From positions 1,728,001 through 1,792,000 of the forward strand of contig OZ244922.1 of the NCBI GenBank assembly GCA_965221905.1: 64,000 nucleotides of DNA, given 5' to 3'. A model generated the notes under the pieces. The model did not search any database. It worked only from the letters and a program-made list of their open reading frames with translations, and was not told the DNA's origin. This document shows positions 3-56,094 of the stretch, in pieces (positions within the stretch are counted from its first letter, which is position 1; each line of letters starts with the position of its first letter). This stretch comes from Chloroflexota bacterium (GTDB taxonomy: Bacteria > Chloroflexota > UBA11872 > VXOZ01). A program made the position numbers and the translations under genes.

Positions 3-2720
3 GGTGAAAGAGAAATTGTTGAACTCCAGCAAATACTCGAGAAGAGCATCCTGCCGAAGATTTCCGGCCTGGACGGTATCTCAAGTCTTGACATAAGCGG
101 AGACGTACAACAGCGCATCCTGATCACCGTTGACCCGGATCGTCTGTTAGAACGAGGTATCTCGCTCTTCCAAGTCTCGCAAGCGCTGCGGGAGAACAAC
201 GTCACGTTCCCCGGCGGGGCGATCACGCGTAACGGCCAGGTTATACCGGTAAAAACAACCAACACTTTTGGTTCTGTAGAGGAGCTTGAAGAGTTGGTAG
301 TTGGGTTTCCACGCGCCGCTGGTGGGCCGTCCTCACAGTCTGCCGCGCCGCAGCCAATTAGATTGGCTGACGTCGCGGAGGTTCAACTTGGTTCGGGTGT
401 TGCCCGCAGCATTTCACGTACAAACGGCAAACCCAGTATCAGCTTGTCCGTATTCAAAGATCCGGATGCAAACACTCTAGACGTCACGAACGCTGTAAAA
501 GATGCATTGGATGGCGTGGAGGACTTGCCGCCGGACGTAGAGGCAGTCATCGTCTACGACGACGGCCCCCAAATCCAAGGACAGATAGATACGCTGGAGC
601 AGGAGGCGCTCATGGGTCTCTCTCTGGCTGTCATCGTGGTCTTCGCCTTTTTCTTGACCCTACGCCCCAACGCACTCAAGGGCATGTTTCGGACTCTCCG
701 GCCAACCTTGGTGATTGGGCTCTCTATTCCGCTCAGTATTTTCGCCGGTGTGCTCCTGATGAATTGGCAGGGGTTATCGCTGAATTTCATGACGTTAGGT
801 GGCCTGGCCATATCGGTGGGTAGAGTGGTGGATGACAGCATCGTGGTACTGGAGAACATCTATCGCAACATCGATGGAGGCAAGGAACGCTGGCGGGCGG
901 CTTTGGATGCGACCGTTGAAGTGGGCCCGGCCATCACTGCCTCCACTTTGGCAACGATAGTGGTCTTCGCGCCTCTGGCGTTCATTCAGGGGCTCGTGGG
1001 TGCGTTCTTCCTCCCGTTTGCGCTTGCAGTTAGCTTCGCATTGATTGGCTCGCTTCTGGTGGCATTGACCGCGGTACCCGTGTTGGGCGCATACCTGCTG
1101 CGGCCGGGTGATCTCCCTGAGGGCACCGGCGAGGAAGAGGACATTCCGGAGACGAACACGTGGATGCAGCGCATCTACGTGCCCATGCTGCGCTGGTCGT
1201 TGAATCACAAGACGCTCACCTTGCTGGCTGCCATCCTCATCGCCGTGGGGAGTCTGGGGCTGCTGCGCTTCATTCCCGTCAATCTCTTCTCCTCCGGCGG
1301 CACAGAATTCGTCACGATCAACATGACGCTCCCGCCGGGTACACCTGCCGAGGTCACCTTGGCAGAGGTCGTCGAAATAGAGGATCAGATTGAGGAATTC
1401 TCAGAAATCTACGACACCACCGTAGGGGCGACAAGTCAATCTGGCGGGCAGAGCTTTGCGAGTGGCCTCAACCAGTCCACCACCTTCATTAGACTTAAGG
1501 AGGACGCGCCTGAGGATGTAATGGCGCAACTGCGTAAGAACATTCCAAGCTCCAGCGACCGACGCATTACTATTCAAGACATTGGCGGCGGGCCTCCGGC
1601 GGCCGGATTGGATATTAGTATCACCGGCAACAACTACGGTGACATAGCGCTCATTGCTCAATTGCTTGCGAGCGAACTTGAAACCATCGACGGCGTGGAG
1701 GATGTCACGAGTAACGTGAGCGAGGCAAGGGATGAGTTGATCGTCAACGTCGACCCGGAGCGCGCTGCGGCGATTGGGCTTAGCACACAGTCTGTCGCGT
1801 TCCAAATCAACCAATTCCTCGTAGGCCAGAAAGTTACCCAGATAGATCTGGACGGCGCCCCCGTCGACGTGTTCCTGAGCGGGCCTGCGGGCAGGATCAA
1901 CAGCGTTGAAACCATTGGCTCGCTGATAATTGCCGGCCCCTTTGGAGTAGCTCCTCTCAGCGACTTAGCGTCCGTGCAGATCGAGGCAGGACCCGTGGCG
2001 ATTAGCCGTACAGACCGTCTGCGCTCTGCCAGTGTCAGCGGTGACATAACCGTGGATGACACACAGGCGATTGGGCTCCTGATCCAGGAAAAGATCGATG
2101 CCCTCGATCTGCCTCCAGGCGTGACCGTGACGAATGCAGGGGTCTTTTCGCAAATCACGGAAGGATTCGAGGATATATTCCTTGCCATGGGAGTTGGCAT
2201 CATCTTGGTGTACCTCGTGATGGTCGGTAGCCTCGGATCGCTGAGAAATCCGTTCGTGATTGTGACCAGTCTGCCGCTCGCGCTGATCGGCGCTTTGGCG
2301 GCATTGGCAATTACGGGACGCTCGCTCGGCCTGCCGGGGATGATGGGAATCCTGCTGCTGATCGGTATCGTCGTTACAAATGCAGTTGTGCTCGTGTCCT
2401 TCGTCGAGCAGCTCCGGGAGCGCGGCTTAAGCGTTCACGAAGCGCTCCTGCAGGGCGGGCGCACTCGGCTGCGGCCCATATTGATGACCGCCATCACTAC
2501 CAGCTTTGCGCTACTTCCCCTCGCGGCGTTTTCCGAGGAGTCAGGCGGCATCCTGGGCGCGGAGCTTGCCACCGTGGTGATCGGCGGCTTGATGAGCTCG
2601 ACGTTTCTGACCTTGCTCGTGGTGCCGGTGGTCTATACTTTGGCCAACCGAAGCATTCCCGGTTCGTTCCGGCGGATGTTTGGACGGAGGTCCCCAATTG
2701 AGCGGGTGGAAATTATCTGA
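3..2720 (+). CDS. RND efflux transporter permease, AcrB/AcrD/AcrF family (5' partial)
   Basis: Frame is open from position 3 into the 808-aa ORF. RND motifs GRVVDDSIVVLENI, GIVVTNAVVLV and GRTRLRPILMTAITT; two TM bundles. Confidence 0.93.
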   Translation, partial: GEREIVELQQILEKSILPKISGLDGISSLDISGDVQQRILITVDPDRLLERGISLFQVSQALRENNVTFPGGAITRNGQVIPVKTTNTFGSVEELEELVVGFPRAAGGPSSQSAAPQPIRLADVAEVQLGSGVARSISRTNGKPSISLSVFKDPDANTLDVTNAVKDALDGVEDLPPDVEAVIVYDDGPQIQGQIDTLEQEALMGLSLAVIVVFAFFLTLRPNALKGMFRTLRPTLVIGLSIPLSIFAGVLLMNWQGLSLNFMTLGGLAISVGRVVDDSIVVLENIYRNIDGGKERWRAALDATVEVGPAITASTLATIVVFAPLAFIQGLVGAFFLPFALAVSFALIGSLLVALTAVPVLGAYLLRPGDLPEGTGEEEDIPETNTWMQRIYVPMLRWSLNHKTLTLLAAILIAVGSLGLLRFIPVNLFSSGGTEFVTINMTLPPGTPAEVTLAEVVEIEDQIEEFSEIYDTTVGATSQSGGQSFASGLNQSTTFIRLKEDAPEDVMAQLRKNIPSSSDRRITIQDIGGGPPAAGLDISITGNNYGDIALIAQLLASELETIDGVEDVTSNVSEARDELIVNVDPERAAAIGLSTQSVAFQINQFLVGQKVTQIDLDGAPVDVFLSGPAGRINSVETIGSLIIAGPFGVAPLSDLASVQIEAGPVAISRTDRLRSASVSGDITVDDTQAIGLLIQEKIDALDLPPGVTVTNAGVFSQITEGFEDIFLAMGVGIILVYLVMVGSLGSLRNPFVIVTSLPLALIGALAALAITGRSLGLPGMMGILLLIGIVVTNAVVLVSFVEQLRERGLSVHEALLQGGRTRLRPILMTAITTSFALLPLAAFSEESGGILGAELATVVIGGLMSSTFLTLLVVPVVYTLANRSIPGSFRRMFGRRSPIERVEII

Positions 2721-3976: not shown

Positions 3977-4489
3977 ATGAGAAAGAGGATTTGGCTCATT
4001 GGACTGGTCGCGGTCATCGCGGCGGCGATTGGGCTTGGCAGCATGACCGCGTTCGCCCAAGAGAAGGAAGAAGGGTCATCCAGAACCGGGCTGATCGCGC
4101 GAGTCGCCACGATCCTGGGACTAGAGGAGCAGCAAGTACAGGATGCCTTCGACGAGGCGCGGCGAGAGATGATGGATGAGATGCTGGATCAGAGGCTTGC
4201 CGCTCTGGTTGAGAGTGGACGCATCACTCAGGATCAGGCTGACGAGCTTCGTGAATGGTATGCTGATCGGCCGGATGGGGTCTGGGCTGGCGGTAGTTTT
4301 GGCCGTGGCAAAGACGCCAGATACGACCGAGGACATGGCTTTGGCGGCCGTGGGCATTTCTCTTTTGGCCGTGGACATTTCTCTAACAAAGGGAATCGTC
4401 TTGATAAAGGCGAAACTGTCCCGGCAACACCCGCGACTGCTCCAGCCGCAACGCCTACGGCACCGGCAGACTCTTCCAATAGCAACTAG
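3977..4489 (+). CDS. Secreted helical protein with Gly/Arg/His-rich and Pro/Ala/Thr tail, upstream of a two-component system
   Basis: GGAGG RBS; signal peptide ending AFA-Q; VATILGLEEQQVQDAF...LVESGRITQDQADE core; tandem GRGHFS repeat (4346-4384). Confidence 0.8.
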   Translation: MRKRIWLIGLVAVIAAAIGLGSMTAFAQEKEEGSSRTGLIARVATILGLEEQQVQDAFDEARREMMDEMLDQRLAALVESGRITQDQADELREWYADRPDGVWAGGSFGRGKDARYDRGHGFGGRGHFSFGRGHFSNKGNRLDKGETVPATPATAPAATPTAPADSSNSN

Positions 4490-4862: not shown

Positions 4863-5549
4863 ATGGCAAATACAGTACTAATAGTGGAAGACGATCCGGA
4901 CACCGCAAAGCTCGTTAGTCTCTACCTACAACGCGACGGGCACAAGGTACTGTGCGCGCGTGACGGCATGGAAGGCTTGCGTCTTGCGAGAGACGCCCGG
5001 CCCGATCTTGTAGTCTTGGACCTCATGCTCCCAAAGCTAAACGGTATTGGGGTTTGCCGTACGCTGCGGCAGGAATCAACGGTGCCAATTGTCATGGTGA
5101 CGGCGCGAGTCGAGGAAGAAGACCGGCTCAAAGGGCTCGACTTGGGGGCCGACGACTACGTCACCAAGCCGTTTAGTCCCCGCGAGCTTGCGGCACGCAT
5201 AAGAGCCGTGCTTCGCCGCACCGCCAAAGTCGATCTGGAGCCCGGCCCGGTGGAGGTCGCGCACAGCGGTGTCACCGTGGACTTGCATCGCCGGACGGTC
5301 TGCGTGGACGACCGGAAAGCCGTCCTCACGCCGACTGAGTTTGGCATTCTTGTGATGCTCATCAAGGAGCCGGAGCGGACGTTTTCGCGCGAACAAATTA
5401 TAGACCGCGTGCTTGGGTTCGACTTTCAGGGCTTCGACCGGACGGTAGATGCCCACATTGCGAACATCAGACGGAAGATCAGGCCGCTGGACGGCCCGGA
5501 CCACATTCAAACCGTATACGGCGTGGGCTATAGATTTAGCAATGACTAG
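4863..5549 (+). CDS. OmpR/PhoB-family response regulator
   Basis: Receiver motifs VEDD, LDLMLP and GADDYVTKPF; winged helix RTVDAHIANIRRK...TVYGVGYRF. Confidence 0.95.
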   Translation: MANTVLIVEDDPDTAKLVSLYLQRDGHKVLCARDGMEGLRLARDARPDLVVLDLMLPKLNGIGVCRTLRQESTVPIVMVTARVEEEDRLKGLDLGADDYVTKPFSPRELAARIRAVLRRTAKVDLEPGPVEVAHSGVTVDLHRRTVCVDDRKAVLTPTEFGILVMLIKEPERTFSREQIIDRVLGFDFQGFDRTVDAHIANIRRKIRPLDGPDHIQTVYGVGYRFSND

Positions 5550-6966
5550 GTGGTTCTTCAGCCTGCAATTTCGGCTCATCCTCGGTTTCGCCGTAGTGCT
5601 CATGTTGGCGCTGGCGGCGGTCGGCATTTACAGTAATCTCGCGGCACAGCGCGAAGTGCGCAAGCTGCGAGCCGCCGCGGACGAGGTCTTGATTGTCAGA
5701 GTTCAAGAAGCGTTCACAGAATTCTATGCGGATACGGGGAGTTGGAGCGGAGTTGCAAATACTGTCGAAAGGGTAAGTTACCTGATCGGACGCGAAATTG
5801 CGATCTTGGACGGGGAGGGTAGTGTTCTCGTCGCAACGAGGCTGACGAGCGAAAGCAAGCGCCCTCCGCACGAACAAGAATACACGTCATCGAGCATAGT
5901 TGTTGGCGGCGATCACGTTGGCTCAGTCTTGATCGGCCCAGCAGCTTCGCGACGGACGTTTAGGCCGTACCGTGGAAGTGACCGCCCCCCTGGTCCGCCG
6001 GAGGCCCTGCGAGAAATCCAGGAACCGTCGCTGCGACGATTTACCGATACTACCTTTCAGTCTCTCCTACTATCGGGTCTCGGCGCGGGAGTGGGGGGTA
6101 TTCTGCTTGTCTCGCTGCTTTCCCGTAGGCTGCTTACGTCGGTGCGCAGGCTGACGGCCGCGGCACAGAAACTCGGGCAGGGCGACCTCTCACAGCGAGT
6201 GACTGTGTCCGGGCGCGACGAAATTGGCGAGTTGACGAGCACCTTCAATGCCATGGCAGAAGGACTTGAAAACGCCGAACGGCAGCGACGCAACATGGTT
6301 GCGGATGTTGCCCACGAACTCCGGACTCCCTTGTCCAACATACGCGGCTACGTTGAGGCGGTCCGTGACGGTGTGTTGGAAGCCGATGCGGAGACAATCG
6401 AGAGCATTCATCGACAGACGATGTATCTCTCTAAACTGGTGGAAGACCTCCGCCTGCTGGCAGAAACCGAAGCCGCCGACTTCCAACTCGACCTCGAGCC
6501 GGGGCTGCTGGAGGAGGTAGTTTCCCGGTCGGTGGAAGCGTTTCGCCCGCAGGCACAATCTAAGGGGATTGAACTTGCCTTTAGCGCCGGTGCTGATATG
6601 GCAGAGCTTTCCGGCCGCCTTGTAAGCATTGACCGCACGCGCATAGAGCAGGTTATGAACAATCTGCTGCAGAACGCTGTTGAGCACACAACTGAGGGCG
6701 GTCGTATCGACGTTTCCGTCGCTGAGTTCGATGAGACGGTGTCGGTTACGGTTGCCGATACAGGGGAAGGCATTCCAAGCGAGCACCTCCCCCACGTCTT
6801 CGATAGGCTCTATCGCGTTGATCCTTCACGTACCCGCAGCACCGGCGGGGCAGGGCTCGGGCTGACCATCGCCAAGCAGTTGATCGAGGCACACGGCGGT
6901 ACCATCCGTGTGGAGAGCACTGAAGGCGAAGGCAGCCGGTTCATTCTCACTCTGCCGCTGGCCTAA
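5542..6966 (+). CDS. HAMP-domain sensor histidine kinase (BaeS-like)
   Basis: Two TM segments, HAMP, H-box DVAHELRTPL, N-box NLLQNA, G-boxes DTGEGI and GAGLGL. ATG 5542 overlaps the regulator stop. Confidence 0.93.
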   Translation: MTRWFFSLQFRLILGFAVVLMLALAAVGIYSNLAAQREVRKLRAAADEVLIVRVQEAFTEFYADTGSWSGVANTVERVSYLIGREIAILDGEGSVLVATRLTSESKRPPHEQEYTSSSIVVGGDHVGSVLIGPAASRRTFRPYRGSDRPPGPPEALREIQEPSLRRFTDTTFQSLLLSGLGAGVGGILLVSLLSRRLLTSVRRLTAAAQKLGQGDLSQRVTVSGRDEIGELTSTFNAMAEGLENAERQRRNMVADVAHELRTPLSNIRGYVEAVRDGVLEADAETIESIHRQTMYLSKLVEDLRLLAETEAADFQLDLEPGLLEEVVSRSVEAFRPQAQSKGIELAFSAGADMAELSGRLVSIDRTRIEQVMNNLLQNAVEHTTEGGRIDVSVAEFDETVSVTVADTGEGIPSEHLPHVFDRLYRVDPSRTRSTGGAGLGLTIAKQLIEAHGGTIRVESTEGEGSRFILTLPLA

Positions 6967-7016
6967 AGGAACTTCCGCAGACCTCATGGCATCTATTGCT
7001 TCCGCCGGTTGAGCCT

Positions 7017-7105
7017 TTCGCGCTAAGCCCCAATTCCATTTACGCCATGCTCCAATCCCATTCGCGCTGAGCCCCATCTCCGTTCGCGCTGAGCCTGTCG
7101 AAGCG
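7017..7105. repeat. Degenerate REP-like cluster (TTCGCGCTGAGCC x3, last copy extends CTGTCGAAGCG)
   Basis: Copies at 7017-7029, 7061-7073 and 7083-7095. Confidence 0.6.
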
Positions 7106-7368
7106 GAAACGGCCCGTCCTTCCTGTTGCCACCTAAACCTATATCAATGACTCGGTCGAGCGGTCGTAACTGCGCGGCTGCATCGCCGAAATTGCTAAAG
7201 CATAGGGCGTATGAGCCTACAGCCCGCACTTTCAGATGCACTCTCGTAAGCCTGCGCAGGACACAGCAATGCGCGCCGGACACCGCTTTCGGGATTAGTA
7301 GATTTTGACTTGGGCTGTGCAGATATGCGAAAAATCGCGTGCACCTACACCCAAAGCGTTCCTCATTC

Positions 7369-7445
7369 TGTCATTCTGAGGAGCGCAGCGACGAAGAATC
7401 TAGAGTGCGGGGATTTCTAGATTCCTCGCTGCGCTCGGAATGACA
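7369..7445. repeat. REP/REPIN-like palindromic element (GTCATTC...GAATGAC type)
   Basis: TGTCATTCTGAGGAGCGCAGCGACGAAGAATCTAGA ... TCTAGATTCCTCGCTGCGCTCGGAATGACA forms a long imperfect inverted repeat. Confidence 0.8.
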
Positions 7446-7590
7446 TGAAATGCAGTGCTGCAAAGTTATCAAGTCTAGGTCTACTAATTGCGACTGCTTT
7501 TTCTCTTGACTTCATCCCAAAGCCGTTACATACTCGAATATGGGGGTTTCTCCAATCTCGGAGAAATGTGTGCGAATAAGGAGGTCTCGC

Positions 7591-9063
7591 ATGACTGCGA
7601 CGAGACCGCGGACTTTGTCATGTCCGCCGACTACGGCAACGCCGCCGACTACGCCAGGACTGCCGCCGACTTCGGCCAGGAAATTCACTCGGCGAACGTG
7701 GCTCGGCTGCGTTCTGCTTGGCGCGCAGGCGGCCGCACTGGCAGCCTGTGGCGGCGATGACGAGGACGAAGCGGAGCAACCGCGCGCCGCGCCGGAGGCT
7801 CCGCAGGCTTCCGTGCCCAAGCTCGCGCGCGAACCGGTGACGCTGACACTCGGTGCTATGTTGGTCGAATTCGCGCCTGTTGTTGGCAAGGCCATTGAGC
7901 AGTGGAACAGGGGCGAATTACCCGGAGCATCCGAAAGCATCCAGCTAGAGCGTGTTACGATTGGCATTCCCCCGACGCGGGAGCCGTTGGCGTTTACCGA
8001 GCATCTGCAAGCTAAAGTGCAGGCATTCTTGATCGAGCGGGAGGCGGCCGGCATGCCGCTTGACTTGCTCATGGTCAACCGTCTCTTTGATTTCCCCTGG
8101 GCCTTCCGCAGCGGCATCCTCCAGCCGCTCGACCGGTATCTGCAGCAAGACCGCAACGAACCGCTAGCAAGGTTTTTGCCATTAGCATTGGAATTGGTGC
8201 GCTATCAGGGCCAGTCCATGGCGCTGCCCGTTGCCATGAACGTGGGTGTGTCGCGATACAACCCCAAGTTCTTCGACGATGCCGGCCTGTCTGTGCCGGA
8301 CAACGGCTGGAACCGTGAGCAATTCATCGCCGCCGCCCAGCGGCTCACGAAGGACACGGACAATGACGGTAAGGTGGATTCCTGGGGCTTTCGTCCTGAC
8401 GATTTATTCGTAAACTGGTTGCCTTTCGTCATGCAGGAGATGGACGGGGACGTGATCGATTTGAATACGGGGGAGGTGCGCCTCACGGACCCGGCGGCCC
8501 TGCGCGGTCTTCAGTTTTGGGATGAATTGGGGAGAGTACACGGCATTCTGCCCCATGGCCCGGAAGTGTCAGCGGACCCCGTTCGTGTGAGCTTTTGGCT
8601 TCGACACCCTGGTATCTTTTTCTATTACTTTCTCTCCCCTGGTAGCGTGAATTTGGGCAAACAAGCGCCGCTCCCCACCGGACCGCAAGACCTTACACCG
8701 TTGACATTGGGGGCGGCCCTAGCGATTCCTGCCACTGCGGGGGACGCTGCTCAATCGTACGAGGCGCTGGTGCCGCTGGCGCTCTACATTGGCGAGCATC
8801 TCCTGCTGCCGCCGGTGATTTCGGGACAAAAGTATATTGAGAAACCTGTCTCCGACTACATTCAACTCATGCTTCCTGAATACGACCGGCAGCTTGCGCT
8901 GCACCTGCTACAGACTGCCCGCCCATCGCATCTGGGCAGTAGCTCTGTGATGACGATCCAGCTCTTCGAGAAGCTGACGCTGCCGCTGGCGCGAGGGGAA
9001 GTGGGCTTAATGCAGGCCGCGCAGGAGGCGCAGAACTGGCTGCAATTCTACCTGAGTCAATGA
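7591..9063 (+). CDS. Extracellular solute-binding lipoprotein, family-1 (sugar-type) SBP, paralog 1
   Basis: ATG 7591 after AAGGAGG; TRRxxL Tat-like motif and lipobox LAAC; LQPLDRYL, YQGQSMALP, GWNREQF..AAQRLTKDTDNDGKVDSWG. Confidence 0.85.
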   Translation: MTATRPRTLSCPPTTATPPTTPGLPPTSARKFTRRTWLGCVLLGAQAAALAACGGDDEDEAEQPRAAPEAPQASVPKLAREPVTLTLGAMLVEFAPVVGKAIEQWNRGELPGASESIQLERVTIGIPPTREPLAFTEHLQAKVQAFLIEREAAGMPLDLLMVNRLFDFPWAFRSGILQPLDRYLQQDRNEPLARFLPLALELVRYQGQSMALPVAMNVGVSRYNPKFFDDAGLSVPDNGWNREQFIAAAQRLTKDTDNDGKVDSWGFRPDDLFVNWLPFVMQEMDGDVIDLNTGEVRLTDPAALRGLQFWDELGRVHGILPHGPEVSADPVRVSFWLRHPGIFFYYFLSPGSVNLGKQAPLPTGPQDLTPLTLGAALAIPATAGDAAQSYEALVPLALYIGEHLLLPPVISGQKYIEKPVSDYIQLMLPEYDRQLALHLLQTARPSHLGSSSVMTIQLFEKLTLPLARGEVGLMQAAQEAQNWLQFYLSQ

Positions 9064-9170
9064 TTCTTCATGCCACATGAACACGTTGAAAAACAGGCGG
9101 CATCAGGGCGCAAGGAGAGAAGGAATCACCGTAAGACGCAGTAACAGGCTCAACGAGGAGGGTACGTCAA

Positions 9171-10676
9171 ATGCGTGAACTGACACGGCGGGAACTACAA
9201 GCCGAGACCGAGGATGACATCATGGTAATGGTGGCCGATACGCGCGCCACCATCCTGGCCGGATTTGTCGCAGGCACTGCGATCACTGCCGGCTTCATCG
9301 CGGCGGTTGTGCTGGTCACCGGACTTTGGGGCGTTTTGCAGGCGTTTCGCTTCGGCATGCTCGTTGGCCTGACCGGCTTCGTCGTGCTTGCGGCGATCGT
9401 CGGGCTCCTAAGCTTCTTCATTCCCAGGTTCCCCACCACCAGAGCGGTCGCCGGTATTTTGGTATTGACAGTTGCCGTAATCATTTCCGTCTCCGTTTAC
9501 GTATCAGATGTGGCGATTTTGCCAATGGCAGGACGCCTCTTGCTTAAAGCAATGGGCGGCGCCGTATTACTGGTCGTTAGTCTTTGGTACCTGGTGCTGC
9601 TAGGGGGCGGTTGCGGCGCTCTGATGGCTCTCCTGCAGCGGCGCACGGCCCAGCAGGGCGAACACTGGGGTCTCCGATTTGGACAAGTCGTCACGATCCG
9701 CACGGACCCGCATGTCCTGTTGGCCGTTTTCACCGTGCCGCTAATGCTGGCGGCGGTGTTTGGCGCTGCCTACTACCCGGCCCACTCGCTTGCGGCTGTC
9801 GTATTCTTCTCGCCTTTCTGGGTACCATCAGGATTCCTATTCGAGCAGGGATGGGCGCCGCTCCTGCGCCTGGTGCTTGATGCGCGAGTGGGGCAGAAGC
9901 TCTGGTTTCAGCAGAGCGTTGCGCTCGTCCGGCTGCTCCAGTCTGAGGACGTGCTCTTGCTCGGCGCAGTGTTCCAAACAGTGACGGTTGACCCCGCAAC
10001 CGGTGCGGCTCGCATTCGCGGTACCTTTCGAAATGAGGCCCAGATACAGCGGGTTCAGGAAGTCGCCCAGCGAGTACGCGGCGTGAGACAAGCTGAAATT
10101 GAGAGTGTTCTGCCGAGAGCTTCGATAGAGCTGGCAAACTTAACTCTTTCTGAGCGTGAGCGGATGCTTGCGCAGCGCTGCCCGGAGTGTATGCAGCCCA
10201 TCGTAACTGATGAACTGTTCTGCCGTTCCTGCGATTCCTTCTTGCAAAACGAGCTCGTGGGACGGAAGGCCAAACTCTTTCCGCGTTTGCTGGCTGCCGC
10301 GATAGATGCAGGCGTCCCCGCTGCGATCCTACTCATGTTTGTTATCCAGCCGGTTACGCCCTGGGCCATTGCGCATCCGCTCAACTGGTTTTGGCGGTTT
10401 ATTTTCGCGCCGGCCCTGTACGCTTCATTCTACGTATCGGTGCTCCATAGCGGCACGACGCCGGGGAAGGCGCTGCTCGGCCTGGAAATCATTGACTTGA
10501 GGAATCACCGTTACCCGCGTTTGCCACGAATACTGCTGCGCGAACTTGGGGGTAAGCTCGTCAGTACCCTCTGTCTCGGTATTGGATTCTTGTGGGCGGT
10601 CTGGAACAAAGACAACCAGTCCTTGCACGACAAACTTGCCGGCACGGTCGTAGTGCGTAATCCAGACCTGTGGTAG
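9171..10676 (+). CDS. Multi-TM + BON-like + double Zn-ribbon + RDD-family membrane protein, paralog 1
   Basis: GAGGAGG RBS; hydrophobic N-half; CPEC..FCRSC; RDD motifs PRLLAAAID, GTTPGK.LLGL and QSLHDKLAGTVVV. Confidence 0.8.
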   Translation: MRELTRRELQAETEDDIMVMVADTRATILAGFVAGTAITAGFIAAVVLVTGLWGVLQAFRFGMLVGLTGFVVLAAIVGLLSFFIPRFPTTRAVAGILVLTVAVIISVSVYVSDVAILPMAGRLLLKAMGGAVLLVVSLWYLVLLGGGCGALMALLQRRTAQQGEHWGLRFGQVVTIRTDPHVLLAVFTVPLMLAAVFGAAYYPAHSLAAVVFFSPFWVPSGFLFEQGWAPLLRLVLDARVGQKLWFQQSVALVRLLQSEDVLLLGAVFQTVTVDPATGAARIRGTFRNEAQIQRVQEVAQRVRGVRQAEIESVLPRASIELANLTLSERERMLAQRCPECMQPIVTDELFCRSCDSFLQNELVGRKAKLFPRLLAAAIDAGVPAAILLMFVIQPVTPWAIAHPLNWFWRFIFAPALYASFYVSVLHSGTTPGKALLGLEIIDLRNHRYPRLPRILLRELGGKLVSTLCLGIGFLWAVWNKDNQSLHDKLAGTVVVRNPDLW

Positions 10677-10822
10677 TGCGCCCTTTGAAATCGCACCCTT
10701 ACCGGCTGCAGTTCACTTTGTGTTTCAAATTGCTGTAGCGGGACTTTAGGGTTGGAGATAACTTTGAGTTTAGGAGAGTCTTTTATCCGAATCCGCATTG
10801 GCTTACACGGGAAAGGTCTGTC

Positions 10823-12202
10823 ATGACTCGTCGTCAACTGCTTGAATGCCTATTGCTCGGTACTCAGGTCCTGGCCCTGGCTGCCTGCGGCGGCGATGAC
10901 GAGGACGACGCGGAGCAGCCCCGCGCTGCGCCGGAGGTCCCGCAGGCCTCTGTGCCAAAAGTCGCACGAGAGCCGGTGACGCTGAGGCTTGCCGCCGTGC
11001 TGGATCGGCATGGCACTTCCGTCGGCGATGCCATCGAGCGGTGGAATGCAGGCGAGGTCCCGGGCGCTCCTGAAGATGTCCAGCTACAGCGTGTCAAGAT
11101 TGGAATATCGTGGTCGTCCGAGCCGCTGGCACTCATCGAACGTGCGCAAGTCACATTGAGGGCCTTCCTGAGCGAACAAGAGTCTGCCGGCACACCGCCG
11201 GACCTGCTCATGGTCAACACATTCTTTGACTTCCCCTGGATATATGGGAGCGGTCTGGTTCAGCCGCTCGACCGGTATCTGCAGCAAGATCGCACCGAAC
11301 CGCTAGGAAAGTTTCTGCCCGCCGCGCTAGAGTTGGCGCGCTACCAAAGCCAGACAATAGCGCTGCCGGTTGCCCTGGACGCCGGCGTGGCGCGGTATCA
11401 CCCCAAGCACTTCTCCAATGCCGGCCTTTCGCTGCCGGAAAAGGGCTGGAGCCGTGAGGGATTTGTCGCCGCCGCCCAGAAGCTGACAGAGGATACCGAT
11501 AGTGACGGCAAAGTGGATGCATGGGGCTACCATCCGGCCAAACTGTTCGTGAACTGGTTGCCATTCGTGCTGCAGGAGATGGACAAAGACGTGATCGACC
11601 TGCAGACAGGCGCCGTGAGACTAACTGATCCGGCGGCGCTGCGCGGGCTTCAGTTCTGGGAAGAGTTGGGACGGGTGCATGGCATCATGCCGCACGGTGC
11701 GACAGTGACCGAGGACCACTTCGATGCGGACTTCACCACCTTGCTTCCCGGCATTCTCTTCTGGCTATATCTTCCTCCCAGCAATATGCTGCCCGGTCAA
11801 CAAGCCCCGTTGCCGGCCGGACCGCGGGACGTAACACCGTTATCGGTCTCGCAGGCAGTGGCGATCCCTGCCGTCGCGCGCGATGCCGCCCTTTCCTACG
11901 AGGTGTTGATGCCGTTTGCGCTTCACCTTGGCGAGCACCTCCTCATGCCGCCCGTGATCGCGGGACAGCAGTACATTGAGAAACCCACCACCGATTACTT
12001 GGAACTCATGCTGCCTCCTCAGGACCGGGAGCTAGTTTTTCATCTACTCGATACCGCTCGGGCATCGCCACTGGCGAGCAGCCTCGTGATGACGATACGG
12101 CTATTCGAAAGGCTGACTCTGCCGCTGGCGCGCGGGGAAGCGGATGTCGTCCAAGCCGCGCAGCACGGACAAGACTGGCTGGAATCCTATTTGAACCAGT
12201 AG
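10823..12202 (+). CDS. Solute-binding lipoprotein, paralog 2
   Basis: MTRRQLL...LAACGGDDEDD; same conserved blocks as paralog 1. Confidence 0.85.
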   Translation: MTRRQLLECLLLGTQVLALAACGGDDEDDAEQPRAAPEVPQASVPKVAREPVTLRLAAVLDRHGTSVGDAIERWNAGEVPGAPEDVQLQRVKIGISWSSEPLALIERAQVTLRAFLSEQESAGTPPDLLMVNTFFDFPWIYGSGLVQPLDRYLQQDRTEPLGKFLPAALELARYQSQTIALPVALDAGVARYHPKHFSNAGLSLPEKGWSREGFVAAAQKLTEDTDSDGKVDAWGYHPAKLFVNWLPFVLQEMDKDVIDLQTGAVRLTDPAALRGLQFWEELGRVHGIMPHGATVTEDHFDADFTTLLPGILFWLYLPPSNMLPGQQAPLPAGPRDVTPLSVSQAVAIPAVARDAALSYEVLMPFALHLGEHLLMPPVIAGQQYIEKPTTDYLELMLPPQDRELVFHLLDTARASPLASSLVMTIRLFERLTLPLARGEADVVQAAQHGQDWLESYLNQ

Positions 12203-12377
12203 CGTTCACTGCGTACTTAGGAGCCTTTTAGCGTAGGAGAATCGGCACGATTGGGTGAAAACTGCCAACTGGTGTGAAGACCGTTCCTGGAATTAGATAC
12301 ATCCACAAACGAAGTTGGAACCAAAGAGTTGCCGCCGGAGGGCGGGGATTCCTTTCAGAGATACAGAGGTTTTTCTT

Positions 12378-13748
12378 GTGACTAGACGTGAGTTGCTTGG
12401 CCGTACGCTATTGGGCGCGCAGGTCATTCTCTTGGCGGCCTGCGGCGGCGATGATGAGGACGAAGTGGAGCAACCGCGCGCTGCACCCACGGCGCCACAG
12501 GCTTCTGTGCCGAAGCTCTCAAGAGAACCGATTGTACTGACGCTTGCCGCGTCTCGCGGAGGCGGCCCGACGATCGACGCGATCCGTCAGTGGAATGAGG
12601 GCAATATCCCCGGCGTTCCCGACAATGTCGAATTGCAAGACGCTAAGCTGACGTTTTCTACATCGGGAAATCTGGAAACCACTCAGGATGCGTTAGCCGG
12701 CGCCCTTAGCGCTCGTATCTCTGCAGGCACAGTGCCGGACATGATGGCGTTTGATTGGCAGATTGACTTTCCGTGGCTGTTTAAGAGCAATCTCTTACAA
12801 CCCCTGGACCGCTTAATGCAGCAAGATGACAGACAGCCGGCGGAGCAGCTCTTCCCCCAAGCGATGCGGCTAGTGCGCTACCAGGGGCAAACTATGGCGC
12901 TGCCGACGAGAGTGACTGCTGGCGTTGCCCGGTATATTCCAGATATGTTCTCGAGTGCGAATGTCGCAGCACCGCACGCGGGATGGACACGAGATGACTT
13001 TGTGACTGCTGCGAAGCAGCTTACGCAGGACACAAATGGCGATGGCGCGGTGGACCAGTGGGGTTTTGCCGTTAGTCACTTCTATCCGGATTGGCTGCCC
13101 TTCGTGCTCCAAGAGGCAGGCAAAGATGTGATTGATCTCGAGACCGGCGCAGTACACTTGGCCGATCCAGCAGCGCTGCGCGGCCTTCAGGTCTGGGACG
13201 AGCTCGGACGCGTGCACGGCATTATGCCCTACGGGCAGGAGTTTCATGCTAGCCAACCGCGAATTCGCGGCCCTTATCGTCCCAATCGCACAGGCATCCT
13301 ATTTCAGACTGCTTTTGAGACAAGCCGAACTGATGGCCGCAACCTGGCCGCGATCCCTTTGGGACCAATGGAGGGCACACCGCTCATACTTTTTGACATC
13401 GTAGCGATTCCTGCAAGTGCGCGAGATGTCGATCTTTCGTACGAAGCGTTGGTTCCGCTTGCTTTGCACAGTGGTGAACGCAGTAAGTTGCCAACAGTCA
13501 AGGCAAGCTTGCAGCACATCAAGACACCGGGATCGAGAGATCACATCAATCTACTCTTTCTTGAACAAGACCGAGAGATTATCCTTAATATTCTCAATAC
13601 TGCTCAGCCTTCGTACTTGGCCAGTAGCAATGCTATGAATAACTGGCTCTTTGCCAATCTGACGCTGCCGCTGGGGCGTGGTGAGGTAGACGTGGAACAG
13701 GCTGCCCAACAGGCGCAGAATTGGCTGAAATCTTACTTGAACGAATAA
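12378..13748 (+). CDS. Solute-binding lipoprotein, paralog 3 (most divergent body)
   Basis: GTG 12378 after GAGGT; TRRELL...LAACGGDDEDE; DTNGDGAVDQWG. Confidence 0.85.
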   Translation: MTRRELLGRTLLGAQVILLAACGGDDEDEVEQPRAAPTAPQASVPKLSREPIVLTLAASRGGGPTIDAIRQWNEGNIPGVPDNVELQDAKLTFSTSGNLETTQDALAGALSARISAGTVPDMMAFDWQIDFPWLFKSNLLQPLDRLMQQDDRQPAEQLFPQAMRLVRYQGQTMALPTRVTAGVARYIPDMFSSANVAAPHAGWTRDDFVTAAKQLTQDTNGDGAVDQWGFAVSHFYPDWLPFVLQEAGKDVIDLETGAVHLADPAALRGLQVWDELGRVHGIMPYGQEFHASQPRIRGPYRPNRTGILFQTAFETSRTDGRNLAAIPLGPMEGTPLILFDIVAIPASARDVDLSYEALVPLALHSGERSKLPTVKASLQHIKTPGSRDHINLLFLEQDREIILNILNTAQPSYLASSNAMNNWLFANLTLPLGRGEVDVEQAAQQAQNWLKSYLNE

Positions 13749-13914
13749 TATGCCACGCAGAACTAAAACCCATATAGGTAGAAGTGTTGGTAGCATTGGA
13801 CGACAATTGTATTCGCGTGCGTAGACTGTATCTGGACTGAAGTGTGGGTCGATTGCGGGAATGGAGTACAAGCAATGCCGTTGAATGGTAGGGATTTCTT
13901 CAGGAGTTGCGGGG

Positions 13915-15306
13915 ATGTTTCCAGTTTCCAGACGTGAACTGCTCGGCCGCACAGTGCTTGGTGTGCAGATTCTATTGTTAGCTGCCTGCGGCGGCGATGA
14001 TGAGGACGAAGTGGAGCAACCGCGCGCCGCGCCGACGGCACCGCAGGCCTCCGTGCCAAAGCTTGCCAGCGAACCGGTCACGCTGAGGCTTGCCTCGGTT
14101 CAAGATCAGTTTGCCGGCGTAGTCGAAAGGTCTATCAAGCTATGGAATGAGGGCGGGGTTCCTGGGGCGCCGGAAGGCACCTTGCTGGAGCGTGTGGGAG
14201 GTCCAAGAGTTGGGCCGTCTGGGAACACACTGATGTTTGTCGAGAGTGCACAGGCAGCAACGAGAACCTTCCTAACCGAGCAGGAGTCTGCTGGAACGCC
14301 ACCCGATTTGTTCTTGTTCAACAGGTTCTTCGACTTTCCCTGGGTCTTCCGCAGCGGTCTTGTCCAGCCGCTGGACCGGTACCTGCAGCAAGATCAGACG
14401 GAGCCGCTAGGAAGTTTCTTGTCGTCTGCAATGGAGTTAGTGCGCTACCAGGGCCAGACGATGGCGCTGCCAGTCGCCCTTGACGTCGGCGTGGCGCGGT
14501 ACAACCCCAAGCAATTCACAGATGCAGGCATTCCTCTGCCTGACAAGGGCTGGACCCGCGAGGAATTCGTGGAGGCTGCCCAGCGGCTGACACAGGACAC
14601 AGACAATGACGGCAACGTGGATGCGTGGGGTTTTCGGCCGATAGGTTTATTTGCCAACTGGTTGCCCTTTGTCTTGCAAGAGATGGATGAGGACCCGATA
14701 AATTTCGACACCGGCGCCGTTCGTCTCACGGACCCGGCGGCGTTGCGCGGACTTCAGTTCTGGGAAGAGTTGGGTCGATTGCACAAGGTCATGCCTCATG
14801 GCGCGACCGTAACAGCCGACCAATTTGGCGCCAACTTCACGTCCTTGCTTTCCGGCATTCTCTTCTGGGACTTCTTGCCTCCCAGCCACAATTTGCCCGG
14901 CCAGCAAGCGCCGTTGCCGACTGGACCGCAGGACGTTACGACGTTGACTCTATCAGGAGCATTGACAATTCCCTCTGTAGCCTCAGACGCCGACTTGTCA
15001 TACGGTGCGCTACGGCCTTTGGCGCTAAATCTGGGAGAGCGCCTCCTGTTGCCGCCCGTGACTGCGGGGCAAGAGTTCATTGAGAATCCCAGTTCTGACA
15101 ACCTGGAACTTGCGCTGCCGGAGCACGAACGGCAGCTAGTTCTTCACCTGCTCGATACCGCCCGACCCTCCCTACTGGCGACGAGTTTTATCATGACAAA
15201 TCAACTTTTCCAAAGCATGGTATTACCCCTTGCCCGCGGCGAAATGGACGTAGGACAGGCCGCGCAGGAAGCGCAAAATTGGCTGCAATCCTATCTGAAC
15301 GAGTAG
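13915..15306 (+). CDS. Solute-binding lipoprotein, paralog 4
   Basis: ATG 13915 after AGGAG; SRRELL...LAACGGDDEDE; DTDNDGNVDAWG. Confidence 0.85.
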   Translation: MFPVSRRELLGRTVLGVQILLLAACGGDDEDEVEQPRAAPTAPQASVPKLASEPVTLRLASVQDQFAGVVERSIKLWNEGGVPGAPEGTLLERVGGPRVGPSGNTLMFVESAQAATRTFLTEQESAGTPPDLFLFNRFFDFPWVFRSGLVQPLDRYLQQDQTEPLGSFLSSAMELVRYQGQTMALPVALDVGVARYNPKQFTDAGIPLPDKGWTREEFVEAAQRLTQDTDNDGNVDAWGFRPIGLFANWLPFVLQEMDEDPINFDTGAVRLTDPAALRGLQFWEELGRLHKVMPHGATVTADQFGANFTSLLSGILFWDFLPPSHNLPGQQAPLPTGPQDVTTLTLSGALTIPSVASDADLSYGALRPLALNLGERLLLPPVTAGQEFIENPSSDNLELALPEHERQLVLHLLDTARPSLLATSFIMTNQLFQSMVLPLARGEMDVGQAAQEAQNWLQSYLNE

Positions 15307-15407
15307 TTCTGCATTTGTCTTGCCTGGATTTGAGCACGGGCGGATAAGATGGAGTAGGATAGACACCAAAGAGGCACGGTTCAACAATCGTGAGGAGTAC
15401 GTGTCAG

Positions 15408-16919
15408 ATGCGGGACTTTAACCGGCGAGAGCTCGTAGCGGCCACCGAAGATGATGTCCTCATCATGGTGGCGGACATCCGATCGACTCTCATTGCAGGT
15501 TTTGTGGCGGGCATAGGAATTATAGCCGCCTTTATTGGCCTGGCCGTGGTCCTAGCCAGCCTATGGGAGCTCTTGCGCCCCTTCTACTTTGGCATTCTCA
15601 TTGCCGCTGTGGGGCTTGTGATCTTTATTGCATTTCTTGGCATCACGGGGTACTTCATTCCGGAGCTTCTGTCGGCGAGGGTGGTTGGAATATTCCTTGC
15701 CGTGATGCTTGTGCTAGCTTTTGCCGTGGCGTCGCTGACGGCAGATACCACGAGCACTTCCATCTTGGCCAATGCTGGCGGACTCTTGCTTAGTATGGCG
15801 GTCGGGATTCCGGTCCTCATCGGACGTCTTTGGGTTGTCGTGATCGCGGGAGGCATTCTTGGGACTCTGGTCGCTGCGGTCCAACGGGACGCACTGCGAC
15901 ACGAGAAGCGCATGCGCCTCTACTTCACGTCAATTTTCACGCTTGATGTCGAACCTCACACCTTCCTCTCAATCATGGGTGGCAATTTGCTGGCGATTAG
16001 TGCAATTACCGCTGCTTTTTCGCCGCCCCTCAATGCCGGTCTCGCGGCCTCCGTAGTGTTAACGCCCGTGTGGGTTCAGGCCGGCTTTCTCTTCCAAACG
16101 TACTGGCGTCCGCTCATGCTGCGCGTGCTTGACCAGCGTGTAGGTCAAAGTGTCTGGTTTCGGCGGAACATCGGCCTGATGGAGTTGCTGCAGGGCGAAG
16201 ACTCGGATCTCACGGGTGCCACCTTCATGTCGGCCGGTGTGGATTCGGAAAGAATGGTGGCACGGGTGAAAGGTTACTTCCGACACCCGGACCAGATGAG
16301 GCGTGTGCAAGATAGCGCCATGCGCATTCGGGGGCTAACAGCGGTTGAGGTGGAAGACCTCGCCGTCAAAGAAGCCGAGGAGGATTTGGCACGTGAAGAC
16401 ACAGAAACCGGCGGGTTGCGATGCCCTCGTTGCCGGGCTGCGGTACCCGACGGGCGCTTGTTTTGTACAGAGTGCAAGACGTTTGTACAGAATGAAGACC
16501 TCGGCCACCGGGCCCACTTTATCCCGCGTTTTCTCGCTGCGTCGCTGGACTTTGGTGTGCCGGCAGGGCTCATACTTCTGTTCGGACTGACCGGCTTTAA
16601 TCCAGCGGATGGCTACAACTTTCTAACCATCTTCTGGCAGTTCCTCTTCATGCCCATCGTCTACGTCATTTTCTTCTTCTCATTCTTGAGTCGCGGCACC
16701 ACGCCTGGCAAGTCACTGTTTGGCCTGGAAGTGGTCCAGTTGGGACAACAAAGGTACCCTGATTTCAAGACCATGTTACGGCGCGAGATTGTAGGCAAGT
16801 TCGTGAGCGGCCTGCCACTCACCTACGGTTTCATTTCGGCATTTTGGGATAAGAACGGCCAAACCTGGCACGACAAGATGGTGGGCACGGTCGTGGTGCG
16901 CGATCCGGATGTCTGGTAG
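15408..16919 (+). CDS. Multi-TM + BON-like + double Zn-ribbon + RDD-family membrane protein, paralog 2
   Basis: ATG 15408 after GAGGAG; MRDFNRREL aligns to MRELTRREL of paralog 1; CPRC..FCTEC; PRFLAASLD, GTTPGK and QTWHDKMVGTVVV. Confidence 0.8.
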   Translation: MRDFNRRELVAATEDDVLIMVADIRSTLIAGFVAGIGIIAAFIGLAVVLASLWELLRPFYFGILIAAVGLVIFIAFLGITGYFIPELLSARVVGIFLAVMLVLAFAVASLTADTTSTSILANAGGLLLSMAVGIPVLIGRLWVVVIAGGILGTLVAAVQRDALRHEKRMRLYFTSIFTLDVEPHTFLSIMGGNLLAISAITAAFSPPLNAGLAASVVLTPVWVQAGFLFQTYWRPLMLRVLDQRVGQSVWFRRNIGLMELLQGEDSDLTGATFMSAGVDSERMVARVKGYFRHPDQMRRVQDSAMRIRGLTAVEVEDLAVKEAEEDLAREDTETGGLRCPRCRAAVPDGRLFCTECKTFVQNEDLGHRAHFIPRFLAASLDFGVPAGLILLFGLTGFNPADGYNFLTIFWQFLFMPIVYVIFFFSFLSRGTTPGKSLFGLEVVQLGQQRYPDFKTMLRREIVGKFVSGLPLTYGFISAFWDKNGQTWHDKMVGTVVVRDPDVW

Positions 16920-40526: not shown

Positions 40527-42153
40527 CACGATACTCTCCAATAGTCGGATTCCGAATAGTTGATTGATGCCATTAGTCCTGTAGAACCCTTGCAAGGCCG
40601 GCAGCAATCATCGTGTACTCTACACGCACCGCCCTCTTGGATTCTTCCTCTTCAATTCGCTCATTACGACGCCTCTTGGAGTTTCGAATTTGCGAATGCC
40701 GCATTCTCTTGATGCGCTCCTCAGTGACAACAGTTAGTTGACCCTGGAGGCTTTCAATGAGTGAACTGAAATGCCGATTCAGGCTAGTGATACGTTCATC
40801 GATCAGGGGGTCGTTATATTGCCTTTCAGAAGTTTCTTTGTCTTGACTAACAATCGCTACGTAGTTGCTAGCAGCATCCTGAAGTTGCGAGAATCTGCCT
40901 TCGTCAATTGCAAATTCTGGCTGCTTTCTGTCTTGCTCGCTTGTCAATTGTTTCAAGAACACCTCGGACTGAAAGGGTTGTGGGTCAGGGTCATCTGTGG
41001 GGACAAGAATAGGGATTAGAGTACATTGGGGAGTAGCCGAGAGAATATCAAACCGGTAGATGAAAAAAGCGTAGTCACCATGGGGCGTCTCAGAATTTCG
41101 ATCAATCCAGAGCACGATCTTGGGGACACCGCGACCTCCAAACTTCCTGTAGTAAGCCAGTGCAGCCTGTGCCATTGGATGGTGCAAGGTCACGAACTCA
41201 ATGTTTCTTCTTTTGGCCGTCTCAGCATCGAACGTCAGGGTCAAGAGGCGAGGTTCAGACTGTATTCGACTCAGGAATTGTTCACTCAAGGCCTTGTCTC
41301 TTTGGCCTGCCCGCGCACTGTTTACAAAGTAGTCGGCCAGTTCGTTTCTCGGATAAACGTAGAATGAGCGACCATCTTCCCTTTGAACAAGATGCAAGCC
41401 TGGAAGCGCGTCTGCGAGGAATGTCTCCACCAACGCACGAACTTCCTGGGCTGATACAAAACGACCGGAAGATCGTATCTCCTCCATGTCGCGTTGAAGC
41501 AAGAAGTCCTGCCCTAGAAATAGGCCTTGCTCTCTCTCAAATGCTTTCTGCTCTTGCCGGTGTAGCTCAAGGATGCGTACTGCTTCTTCGACCTTTCGTC
41601 TCTCCTCTTCTGCGGTTAGCCGTGCCACGAAGATGTCGCGCGACAACCTGCTCACTACCTTACCGAGGATCGGCTCTAAGTCGCCAATTGAGGATTCGAA
41701 AAGTCCTATTCGGTTGTACAACCGCTCAAATATCCGTGTCTCAATAGTATTCTCGATAACCAGATTGTAAATCCTTATGCGCTTGTGTTGTTGTCCGAAT
41801 CGATCAAGCCGGCCGATCCGTTGCTCAACTCGCATGGGATTCCACGGTAAGTCATAGTTGAACATTGCGCCGCAGAATTCGAAGTCCAGACCCTCGGCGC
41901 CCACTTCCGTAGACACCATAATCCTTAAGTCGCTGCGATCCCGGAACTCGTCAATTCTGCGTTGTCGTTCATCTAAAGGGACTTGGCCGTGAATAGTCTC
42001 TACGGCGATTCCTTCCCGGGTTAAACGGTCGAATAGATACTGCGCAGTGCCACGGAAGAACGAAAAAACCAGCACTTTACAATTCGGATCATCTTCGAAC
42101 AGAAGGCTGAGTGCCTTACTAAACTCTTTGTATTTTGTGTCCTGGCTTTCTAA

Positions 42154-56018: not shown

Positions 56019-56094
56019 GCGCCTGTAGCTCAGTGGATAGAGCATCGGTCTTCGGAACCGAGGGTCGGGGGTTCGAATCCCTCCAGGCGTACCA
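56019..56094 (+). tRNA. tRNA-Arg (anticodon TCG)
   Basis: Acceptor GCGCCTG/CAGGCGT; D arm GCTC/GAGC; anticodon stem TCGGT/ACCGA with loop CT-TCG-GA; T loop TTCGAAT; encoded CCA. Confidence 0.95.

Follow-up and report, generated by a model that had tools for sequence, protein, structure and literature searches.

Candidate envelope-sensing module of sugar-binder-fold lipoproteins and a transmembrane/BON-like protein family in uncultured Chloroflexota

Results

In a 64,000-nt stretch from a Chloroflexota bacterium (UBA11872; VXOZ01; assembly GCA_965221905.1, contig OZ244922.1, positions 1,728,001-1,792,000 of the forward strand), here called the window and used for all coordinates, an array of six genes at 7591..16919 encodes four lipoproteins that resemble solute-binding proteins (SBPs) and two membrane proteins that end in an RDD domain. 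We tentatively read this array, with slightly less than even confidence, as the local copy of a lineage-specific, binding-protein-dependent module for envelope sensing and not as a nutrient importer. Sensing was preferred over ordinary uptake because the lipoproteins adjoin a membrane-protein family and a two-component sensor and not an ABC transporter. The gene-order evidence from related loci says that the lipoprotein family would work with the N-terminal part of these membrane proteins, a transmembrane (TM)/BON-like module, with or without an RDD domain, and near two-component and envelope-stress genes.

Four lipoproteins and two RDD fusion proteins

An earlier note on this DNA had described six plus-strand open reading frames (ORFs) in the order SBP1-RDD1-SBP2-SBP3-SBP4-RDD2, and all of them were confirmed. 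The lipoprotein genes are SBP1 (7591..9063, ORF open from 7540), SBP2 (10823..12202), SBP3 (12378..13748, ORF open from TTG 12315) and SBP4 (13915..15306, ORF open from ATG 13885), and the membrane-protein genes are RDD1 (9171..10676) and its paralog RDD2 (15408..16919, ORF open from 15390). The likely true starts are ATG 7591 for SBP1, GTG 12378 for SBP3, ATG 13915 for SBP4 and ATG 15408 for RDD2; the AGGAGG 7 nt upstream of ATG 7591 is kept in the three closest relatives (loci L005, L009 and L011), GTG 12378 follows AGAGG, and CAGGAG precedes ATG 13915. The spacers between an SBP gene and the RDD gene behind it, given before as about 100 bp, measure 107 nt and 83 nt (101 nt if RDD2 begins at ATG 15408). 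Identities to SBP1 are 66, 50 and 62% for its three lipoprotein paralogs, and RDD1 and RDD2 share 43% identity. NCBIfam named none of the six array proteins, none of eight proteins matched any PADLOC model at E<=0.01, and Rfam detected neither riboswitches nor other RNA families around the array, its sole match in the window being a tRNA at 56019. Six terminator-like sites lie inside the array, which is not above chance given a mean of 9.8 in shuffled sequence.

The lipoproteins form a separate family with a predicted sugar-binder fold

SBP1 displays a Tat-like RR motif, a lipobox Cys, an acidic, proline-containing tether and a MalE-like binding fold. Its three paralogs likewise have an RR motif, a lipobox Cys and the tether, and among 59 family members both the RR motif and the lipobox Cys show little or no variation. 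The Pfam SBP_bac_1 match is marginal and partial in all four lipoproteins (26.7, 32.1, 31.6 and 29.9 bits for SBP1 to SBP4 against a cut-off of 26, with about positions 28-209 of 307 matched), and Bacillota SBPs score 166-180 bits. When a structure model of SBP2 (pLDDT 80.1, confident outside the first 48 residues) was compared with the PDB by Foldseek, at least 500 matches were obtained at E<=0.001, and the top ones listed were almost all sugar-binding proteins of ABC systems. For AbnE, Lmo0181, TMBP and MalE3, E values ranged from 1e-20 to 1e-14 with TM-scores of about 0.6 and identities of 12-18%, and AbnE (6rjy) was the best match with E 9.4e-20. Similarly, a profile of the 59-member family matched 19 sugar-binding proteins in the PDB, again with AbnE as the best (3.9e-17). 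As modelled, the lipoproteins have the bilobed MalE-like (type II periplasmic-binding-protein) fold.

In a collection of 5.8 billion proteins the family had 97 matches at E<=0.001, of which 96 were at or below E 6.5e-64 and the last at 3.5e-5, and this gap sets the family clearly apart from other SBPs; where a source was named for a match, in a few cases, it was Chloroflexota. As for fused or longer forms, which might give a Rosetta-stone clue, just one distant SBP of 843 aa (E 1.6e-10) was found.

Two local features of these proteins were recorded. The SBP1 coding region contains a tandem repeat at 7624-7681 (18-21-nt units, 2.9 copies), encoding a Pro/Thr-rich extension that precedes the RR motif and is absent from SBP2, SBP3 and SBP4. 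A stretch of the pattern DTDxDGxVDxWG at about residues 222-235 of SBP2, in which T222, D224, D228, D232, W234 and G235 are invariant in 59 of 59 members, presumably resembles a calcium-binding loop of the DxDxDG type.

Related loci point to a TM/BON-like module as partner

A family-alignment scan of species-representative genomes yielded 104 confirmed matches, 80 of which were used. They fall into 59 loci, 45 from 15 Chloroflexota metagenome-assembled genomes (MAGs) and 14 from Bacillota (24-31% identity), which were examined to ±10 kb around the SBP matches, and the Chloroflexota loci were typed by local profile searches and by Pfam on neighbour proteins.

Type A comprises 15 loci, the window and L001-L014, and is represented by fragments in L015, L037 and L040. 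Its order is RND pump, small secreted protein, response regulator (RR), histidine kinase (HK), one to four lipoprotein genes and the TM/BON-like-zinc ribbon-RDD fusion. This fusion ends all 15 full arrays and is also present on the short contig L040; the RDD2 orthologs in L001-L014 and L040 are 72-99% identical. Type B (11 loci) is a second locus in genomes that also hold type A, with the order RR-HK-HtrA-TMBON-TMBON-SBP-PspA-SBP and PspA on the opposite strand. Here one or two unfused TM/BON-like (TMBON) genes stand directly 5' of a lipoprotein gene and the RDD domain is absent; the TM/BON-like/SBP junction measures only -4 to +6 nt in L018, L019, L035, L042 and L044. Type B lipoproteins are 37-40% identical to SBP2. 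The RR, HK and HtrA genes lie upstream in 10 of the 11 loci (L033 is cut by a contig end), PspA is found in all 11, and an LPG-synthase-like gene occurs beside type B loci. In the 13 type C loci a pair of family members lies by the surface-polysaccharide genes GT2, Wzy_C, epimerase and DegT. None of these 13 loci has a TM/BON-like gene, nor has L026, where a lone family member precedes two ABC exporter genes. In L016 a family member precedes what is left of an RDD1-like fusion gene (about 11780-12700), which has decayed and contains multiple frameshifts.

Judged by gene order, it is the N-terminal TM/BON-like module, and not the RDD domain, that forms the conserved partner of the lipoproteins. 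The proposal in the earlier note that the N-terminal module of the RDD fusion might be a conserved SBP neighbour was borne out in two paralogous locus types, whereas the idea that the SBPs dock on the RDD domain was abandoned, as type B keeps the TM/BON-like module without any RDD.

Some loci show peculiarities of their own. Around the family member of L016 (5860-18317) there are genes for Transglut_core3, Asn_synthase, NTP_transf_5 and two ABC exporter proteins, a cluster that looks like a lasso-peptide type, and L016, L026 and L001 lie within about 70 kb on one chromosome. In L008 a beta-type lipoprotein gene (9995-11404) is broken into two ORFs (307 and 139 aa) and for this reason is probably a pseudogene. 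In L003 and L008, ABC_tran and ABC2_membrane_6 genes occupy the place 3' of RDD2 where most loci have ispG. One transposase cluster, of which the window's own transposase is not a member, occurs in or beside the lipoprotein arrays of L009, L011, L023 and L026.

ABC importer genes are absent from the neighbourhood

The earlier observation that no ABC importer accompanies the array holds for the window and for ±10 kb of the 45 Chloroflexota loci. Pfam scans of 38 window ORFs (11 + 27) revealed neither a BPD_transp_1 permease nor an importer ATPase, the window's only ABC genes being an ABC-2 exporter pair at 56207-57924. BPD_transp_1 was also absent from all 92 neighbour proteins sent to Pfam from related loci (49 from four whole loci and 43 representatives of recurring clusters); singleton neighbour clusters were covered by a phmmer permease screen only. 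In this screen, four Bacillota permeases used as queries detected 32 ORFs in 12 of the 14 Bacillota loci, which served as positive control, and none in the 45 Chloroflexota loci or the window. Control loci L049 and L057 display the order LacI-SBP-two BPD_transp_1 permeases-ThuA. Complete ABC operons are found around the closest SBPs outside the family, the Bacillota relatives, but around no member of the family itself. Membrane components of TRAP and TTT systems (DctQM, TctAB) gave no Pfam match in the six array proteins or the scanned neighbour proteins.

The array proteins share the MalE-like fold, profile similarity and a lipoprotein export signal with CUT1-type ABC sugar-binding proteins (AbnE 6rjy, TMBP 1eu8, T. 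maritima MalE3, Lmo0181). They differ from them by low identity (12-18%), by the marginal Pfam match, by the lack of nearby permease and ATPase genes in 45 loci, by a conserved tether and by their TM/BON-like and two-component neighbours. Several binding proteins can share one translocator, and the lipoproteins could be orphan SBPs that feed a common CUT1-type permease and ATPase encoded elsewhere, with the RDD and TM/BON-like proteins merely co-located or co-regulated. We consider this unlikely, although the fold and the nearest sequence relatives all belong to ABC sugar-binding proteins, the SBP_bac_1 scores are above threshold, and the members in type C loci and L026 have no TM/BON-like neighbours. 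It is difficult to reconcile with the lack of a permease within 10 kb of 45 loci from 15 genomes when the control found one in 12 of 14 Bacillota loci, with the low Pfam scores and the E value gap that set the family apart from other SBPs, and with a TM/BON-like adjacency that is kept in two diverged locus types.

A conserved tether follows the lipidated cysteine

The best-conserved part of the lipoproteins is the tether, about 30 residues after the lipidated Cys that are acidic and contain proline. Among the four paralogs it is 80-93% identical, versus 50-66% for the whole proteins, and it is predicted to be disordered in the SBP2 model. Third codon positions of the tether are only 57-77% identical, and this low identity together with the diverged DNA indicates purifying selection on the tether peptide. 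Gene conversion was considered as the cause of the near-identical tethers and ruled out by the third-position values and by the mutual DNA identity of the lipoprotein genes, which is 60-76% throughout. The acidic start of the tether is common to types A and B, and type C tethers differ. Two other lipoprotein-like ORFs, the only ones found in these loci and a sample too small to generalise from, lack the tether.

The membrane proteins combine an unassigned module with an RDD domain

Both membrane proteins consist of a multi-TM module, a BON-like domain, a zinc ribbon (CxxC...CxxC in RDD1) and an RDD domain. The RDD domain (PF06271) forms the last 125-130 residues of the fusion of about 500 aa and scores 67.3 bits in RDD1 and 69.8 bits in RDD2 against a cut-off of 24.1, covering profile positions 2-137; the proteins deviate from the RDD family by the fused N-terminal module of about 330 aa. 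R372, D379 and D487 (RDD1 numbering), candidates for the conserved Arg and two Asp residues of the RDD family, are invariant between RDD1 and RDD2, the two paralogs to which this comparison was confined. Zinc-ribbon Pfam models remained below threshold in both proteins. Whole RDD1 matched 7 clusters, and at E<=1e-3 its N-terminal 340 residues had 11 matches in a set of 1.84 billion representatives. These include several proteins of 249-340 aa without RDD, and 6 of the 11 map to SBP-linked genes in the examined loci with 68-99% identity. The N-terminal 330 residues of RDD2 gave no usable match in the ESM Atlas, and Foldseek with the RDD2 model (pLDDT 68.5, pTM 0.47) returned nothing from the PDB at E<=0.001, so that the TM module has no solved look-alike.

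In the RDD2 model, residues from about 249 to 317 follow the order alpha-beta-beta-alpha-beta, which is the BON topology described for DolP (PMC7806268). A profile search against the PDB gave OsmY as top match (E 0.035; E 0.58 in a second profile search), Foldseek with the RDD2 model matched OsmY with probability 0.99 but E 0.48 and DolP with 0.95 but E 0.84, and the BON Pfam model matched the relatives P0111 and P0114 with E 0.0018 and 0.037. The BON label used in the earlier note is therefore only weakly supported, the fold order and the resemblance to OsmY and DolP being consistent with it and the Pfam scores staying below the cut-off. OsmY and DolP are periplasmic, whereas the BON-like domain of the array proteins, with its sub-threshold scores, would be cytoplasmic and juxtamembrane. 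From the charge distribution and the zinc ribbon, we infer a cytoplasmic location for the BON-like, zinc-ribbon and RDD-proximal parts, with short loops on the outer side. A complex prediction of full-length RDD2 with residues 22-459 of SBP2 scored 0.00 in two runs without controls, which speaks neither for nor against binding.

One RDD protein, from H. andaensis, has been reported to be a Na+(Li+,K+)/H+ antiporter (PMC5996927), and another, B. subtilis SppI, to be a protease regulator (PMC7568657). The antiporter report, an intact and conserved RDD domain and the position of SBP genes in front of both RDD genes would fit an RDD fusion that acts as an ion-coupled translocator fed by the SBPs, as in TRAP or TTT systems. 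We regard this as improbable: type B keeps the SBP partnership without RDD, the membrane proteins had no Pfam match to any transporter family, and a recent survey gives the role of RDD as unknown and its binding site as facing the cytoplasm (PMC12419801). In the available portions of all three RDD papers (PMC5996927, PMC7568657, PMC12419801) an association with SBPs is not described.

A two-component system precedes the array

Directly 5' of the array and co-oriented with it lies a regulator/kinase pair that the earlier note did not mention. The OmpR-family response regulator (4863..5549, + strand) matches Pfam Response_reg with 105.9 bits and Trans_reg_C with 83 bits. The membrane histidine kinase (5542..6966, + strand, ORF open from 5449), whose start likely overlaps the stop codon of the regulator, matches HAMP, HisKA and HATPase_c and has two TM segments that flank an outer loop of about 150 aa, followed by HAMP-HisKA-HATPase. 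Orthologs of the regulator (at least 55% identity) are found upstream in 15 of 15 type A arrays, and the kinase ortholog is present in all 15 as well. Type A and type B kinases share 33% identity in the cytoplasmic part only; they were considered as sister sensors, and this was dropped for lack of similarity outside the cytoplasmic domains. A consensus scan (9/12) proposed a sigma-70-like promoter for the array, TTGACT-17-CATACT, at 7506..7534 (+ strand), and the three closest loci (L005, L009, L011) retain this sequence.

The lipoproteins might instead be co-sensors of the adjacent kinase, in the manner of LuxP-LuxQ or LpqB-MtrB, with the TM/BON-like and RDD proteins as outputs of the regulon (membrane-stress effectors). 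In its favour are the RR-HK pair, which precedes all 15 type A arrays and is found upstream in 10 of the 11 type B loci, the outer loop of the kinase, which is far larger than the outward loops of the RDD proteins, and HtrA and PspA in type B, and it has a precedent in LpqB (PMC5845573). Nevertheless we hold it to be as unlikely as a distant shared importer, given that the kinase sensor loops are unrelated though the lipoproteins are homologous, that the tight gene coupling is between TM/BON-like and SBP genes and not between kinase and SBP genes, and that the array promoter is separate.

The neighbours of the type B and C loci also bear on a role in envelope biogenesis or structure, in which the lipoproteins would handle surface glycans and the TM/BON-like proteins would be membrane-integrity factors, joined in one regulon without signalling. 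GT2, Wzy_C, epimerase and DegT by type C, HtrA, PspA and the LPG-synthase-like gene by type B, and the link of BON domains to membrane and envelope integrity (PMC7806268) are compatible with it. It leaves the overlapping or abutting TM/BON-like and SBP genes and the conservation of the tether unexplained, and it appears to us the least probable of the alternatives.

The intergenic region between kinase and array contains two further elements. Directly after the kinase gene, in the window (6990-7090) and at the corresponding place in L005, L009 and L011, there are imperfect tandem repeats of about 24 nt, in varying copy number (few in the window, many in L011), on which Tandem Repeats Finder was silent at score 30. 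Just 5' of the -35 box, a 211-bp insertion (7282-7492), flanked by similar sequences of 8-9 nt, is missing from the three closest loci. The palindromic core of the insertion (about 7368-7447) is found again in L039, L025 and L042, and L014 carries it twice in the corresponding intergenic region; for this reason the insertion looks like a small dispersed element resembling repetitive extragenic palindromes or miniature inverted-repeat transposable elements (REP/MITE-like).

The array is an old set with variable content

A quick maximum-likelihood tree of the lipoproteins (IQ-TREE) was calculated with 54 of 98 rows, comprising all of type A and L015, L016, L018, L026, L027, L030 and L035; the remaining 44 rows did not enter the tree. 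It resolved four well-supported orthogroups, one for each window paralog and shared by many genomes: alpha (SBP1), beta (SBP2), gamma (SBP3) and delta (SBP4). Alpha is the first lipoprotein gene in 14 of 15 arrays, whereas the place just before RDD2 is taken by delta (6 arrays), gamma (5) or beta (3). RDD1-like copies exist in only 3 of 15 arrays (window, L005, L007), and in L007 a gamma gene is followed by the RDD1-like gene and then by RDD2. The earlier idea that SBP-RDD is the duplicated unit did not survive these findings, because the RDD1-like copy is rare and in L007 adjoins RDD2 instead of following the first SBP, and because the orthogroup in front of RDD2 is not constant. Nor does the array look recently diversified, since its four SBPs represent old orthogroups common to many genomes; old orthogroups with variable content suggest an old set with differential loss and not a recent burst.

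Discussion

Comparison with known systems

The closest working analogy for the array is GlnH-GlnX of Actinobacteria, in which the lipoprotein GlnH signals via GlnX, a protein with four TM segments, to PknG (PMC9769921). By that description, a binding lipoprotein is encoded beside a polytopic non-ABC protein that would relay ligand occupancy inward; GlnH binds amino acids, and there are two helical domains on the periplasmic side of GlnX (PMC9769921). The array, in contrast, encodes a predicted sugar-binder fold and proteins with short outward loops. Moreover, the kinase next to the array is a histidine kinase and the putative partner has BON-like, zinc-ribbon and RDD parts that are predicted to be cytoplasmic. 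A second possible analogy is that of kinase accessory lipoproteins such as LpqB, which acts on the kinase MtrB (PMC5845573). Like MtrAB-LpqB, the array unites an OmpR-type regulator, a membrane kinase and lipoproteins in one co-oriented cluster, and it differs in that its lipoproteins have the SBP fold and occur in several copies and in that an extra membrane-protein family is always present. The HtrA gene after the kinase gives type B a likeness to the RR-HK-HtrA envelope-stress operons of other phyla. In both the type A and the type B gene orders an SBP-fold protein is encoded beside a non-ABC membrane transducer or kinase. Full-text searches of the literature brought up no description of RDD or BON proteins together with solute-binding proteins in this arrangement, nor of orphan Chloroflexota SBPs in it.

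A possible mechanism and what weighs against it

For an envelope-sensing module, events could be as follows. The lipoproteins would be located at the outer surface of the cytoplasmic membrane and there capture an extracytoplasmic ligand, judging by the fold most likely a glycan or oligosaccharide and possibly one derived from the envelope. Occupancy would be relayed to the TM module, possibly through the conserved 30-residue tether, and the juxtamembrane BON-like domain, joined in type A by the zinc ribbon and RDD, would provide the cytoplasmic readout. The signal would modulate the neighbouring histidine kinase, or the module would act as an effector of the kinase regulon. HtrA and PspA in type B suggest that the output concerns envelope or membrane stress. 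Going further, the TM/BON-like module might constitute a new family of membrane transducers, unrelated to ABC, TRAP and TTT systems, chemoreceptors and GlnX, which takes input from lipid-anchored binding proteins via the conserved tether and couples the sensing of glycans outside the cytoplasm to a readout of membrane state by the cytoplasmic BON-like and RDD parts. This extension is doubtful.

Several points weigh against a sensing module. For any contact between the SBPs and the membrane proteins, the very short outward loops predicted for the latter leave little docking surface. Since all 15 genomes are rather closely related, the loci, though numerous, provide no more than two or three independent adjacencies, namely type A, type B and the L016 remnant. 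Type C and L026, having no TM/BON-like gene, indicate that the lipoproteins do not strictly need this partner nearby, and four outlying TM/BON-like proteins (P0107, P0110-P0112) are without mapped genomic context. The array promoter lies 570 bp downstream of the kinase gene, and this separate promoter together with the unrelated sensor domains of type A and type B kinases makes the two-component link a positional one only. The model of the membrane protein is only moderately confident, and BON Pfam is below its cut-off of 27 in RDD1 (17.1 bits, E 0.0068) and without a match at E<=1 in RDD2. The absence of an importer covers the window and ±10 kb around the related loci, and a shared importer may exist elsewhere in the genome. 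What stands of the first interpretation of this array, in which interchangeable receptors dock on an RDD fusion protein, is the missing ABC importer and the N-terminal module as conserved neighbour; RDD docking, the SBP-RDD unit and recent diversification were given up.

Other features of the window

The conserved upstream neighbour of type A loci is an RND (AcrB-type) pump gene, whose 3' part lies at 3..2720 (+ strand) and grouped with an ACR_tran cluster of 16 members from 16 sources. Between it and the regulator, a small secreted protein without family assignment is encoded at 3977..4489 (+ strand), which had no Pfam match at E<=0.1 and no relative in the PDB; its ORF cluster has 14 members from 14 sources including the window, all of type A except L037, a truncated locus that overlaps L008. 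This protein was considered as a CpxP/Spy-like component, an assignment that was dropped because Pfam and the PDB gave no support. Downstream of the array lies ispG. On the minus strand, a DDE_Tnp_1/DUF772 transposase gene (42321-43286) is located between a SNF2/ResIII ORF (43329-44843) and a Helicase_C ORF (40573-42168), and the region 40573-44843 looks like a single SNF2-type helicase gene split by an insertion sequence. Adjoining the ABC-2 exporter pair, an ORF of 269 aa at 58119-58928 matches only positions 211-360 of the SBP_bac_5 model and is probably a truncated or decayed gene for a peptide-type binding protein.

Implications

The scope of these findings is narrow, being one clade of uncultured bacteria known here from sequences alone. 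For the annotation of Chloroflexota MAGs they advise caution: such 'extracellular solute-binding proteins' should not simply be equated with uptake capacity. Should the partnership prove real, it would provide a first functional context for the RDD domain and for a module of about 330 residues without family assignment, and it would add a new class of membrane partner for the binding-protein fold, which so far has been tied to ABC, TRAP and TTT systems and a few receptors.

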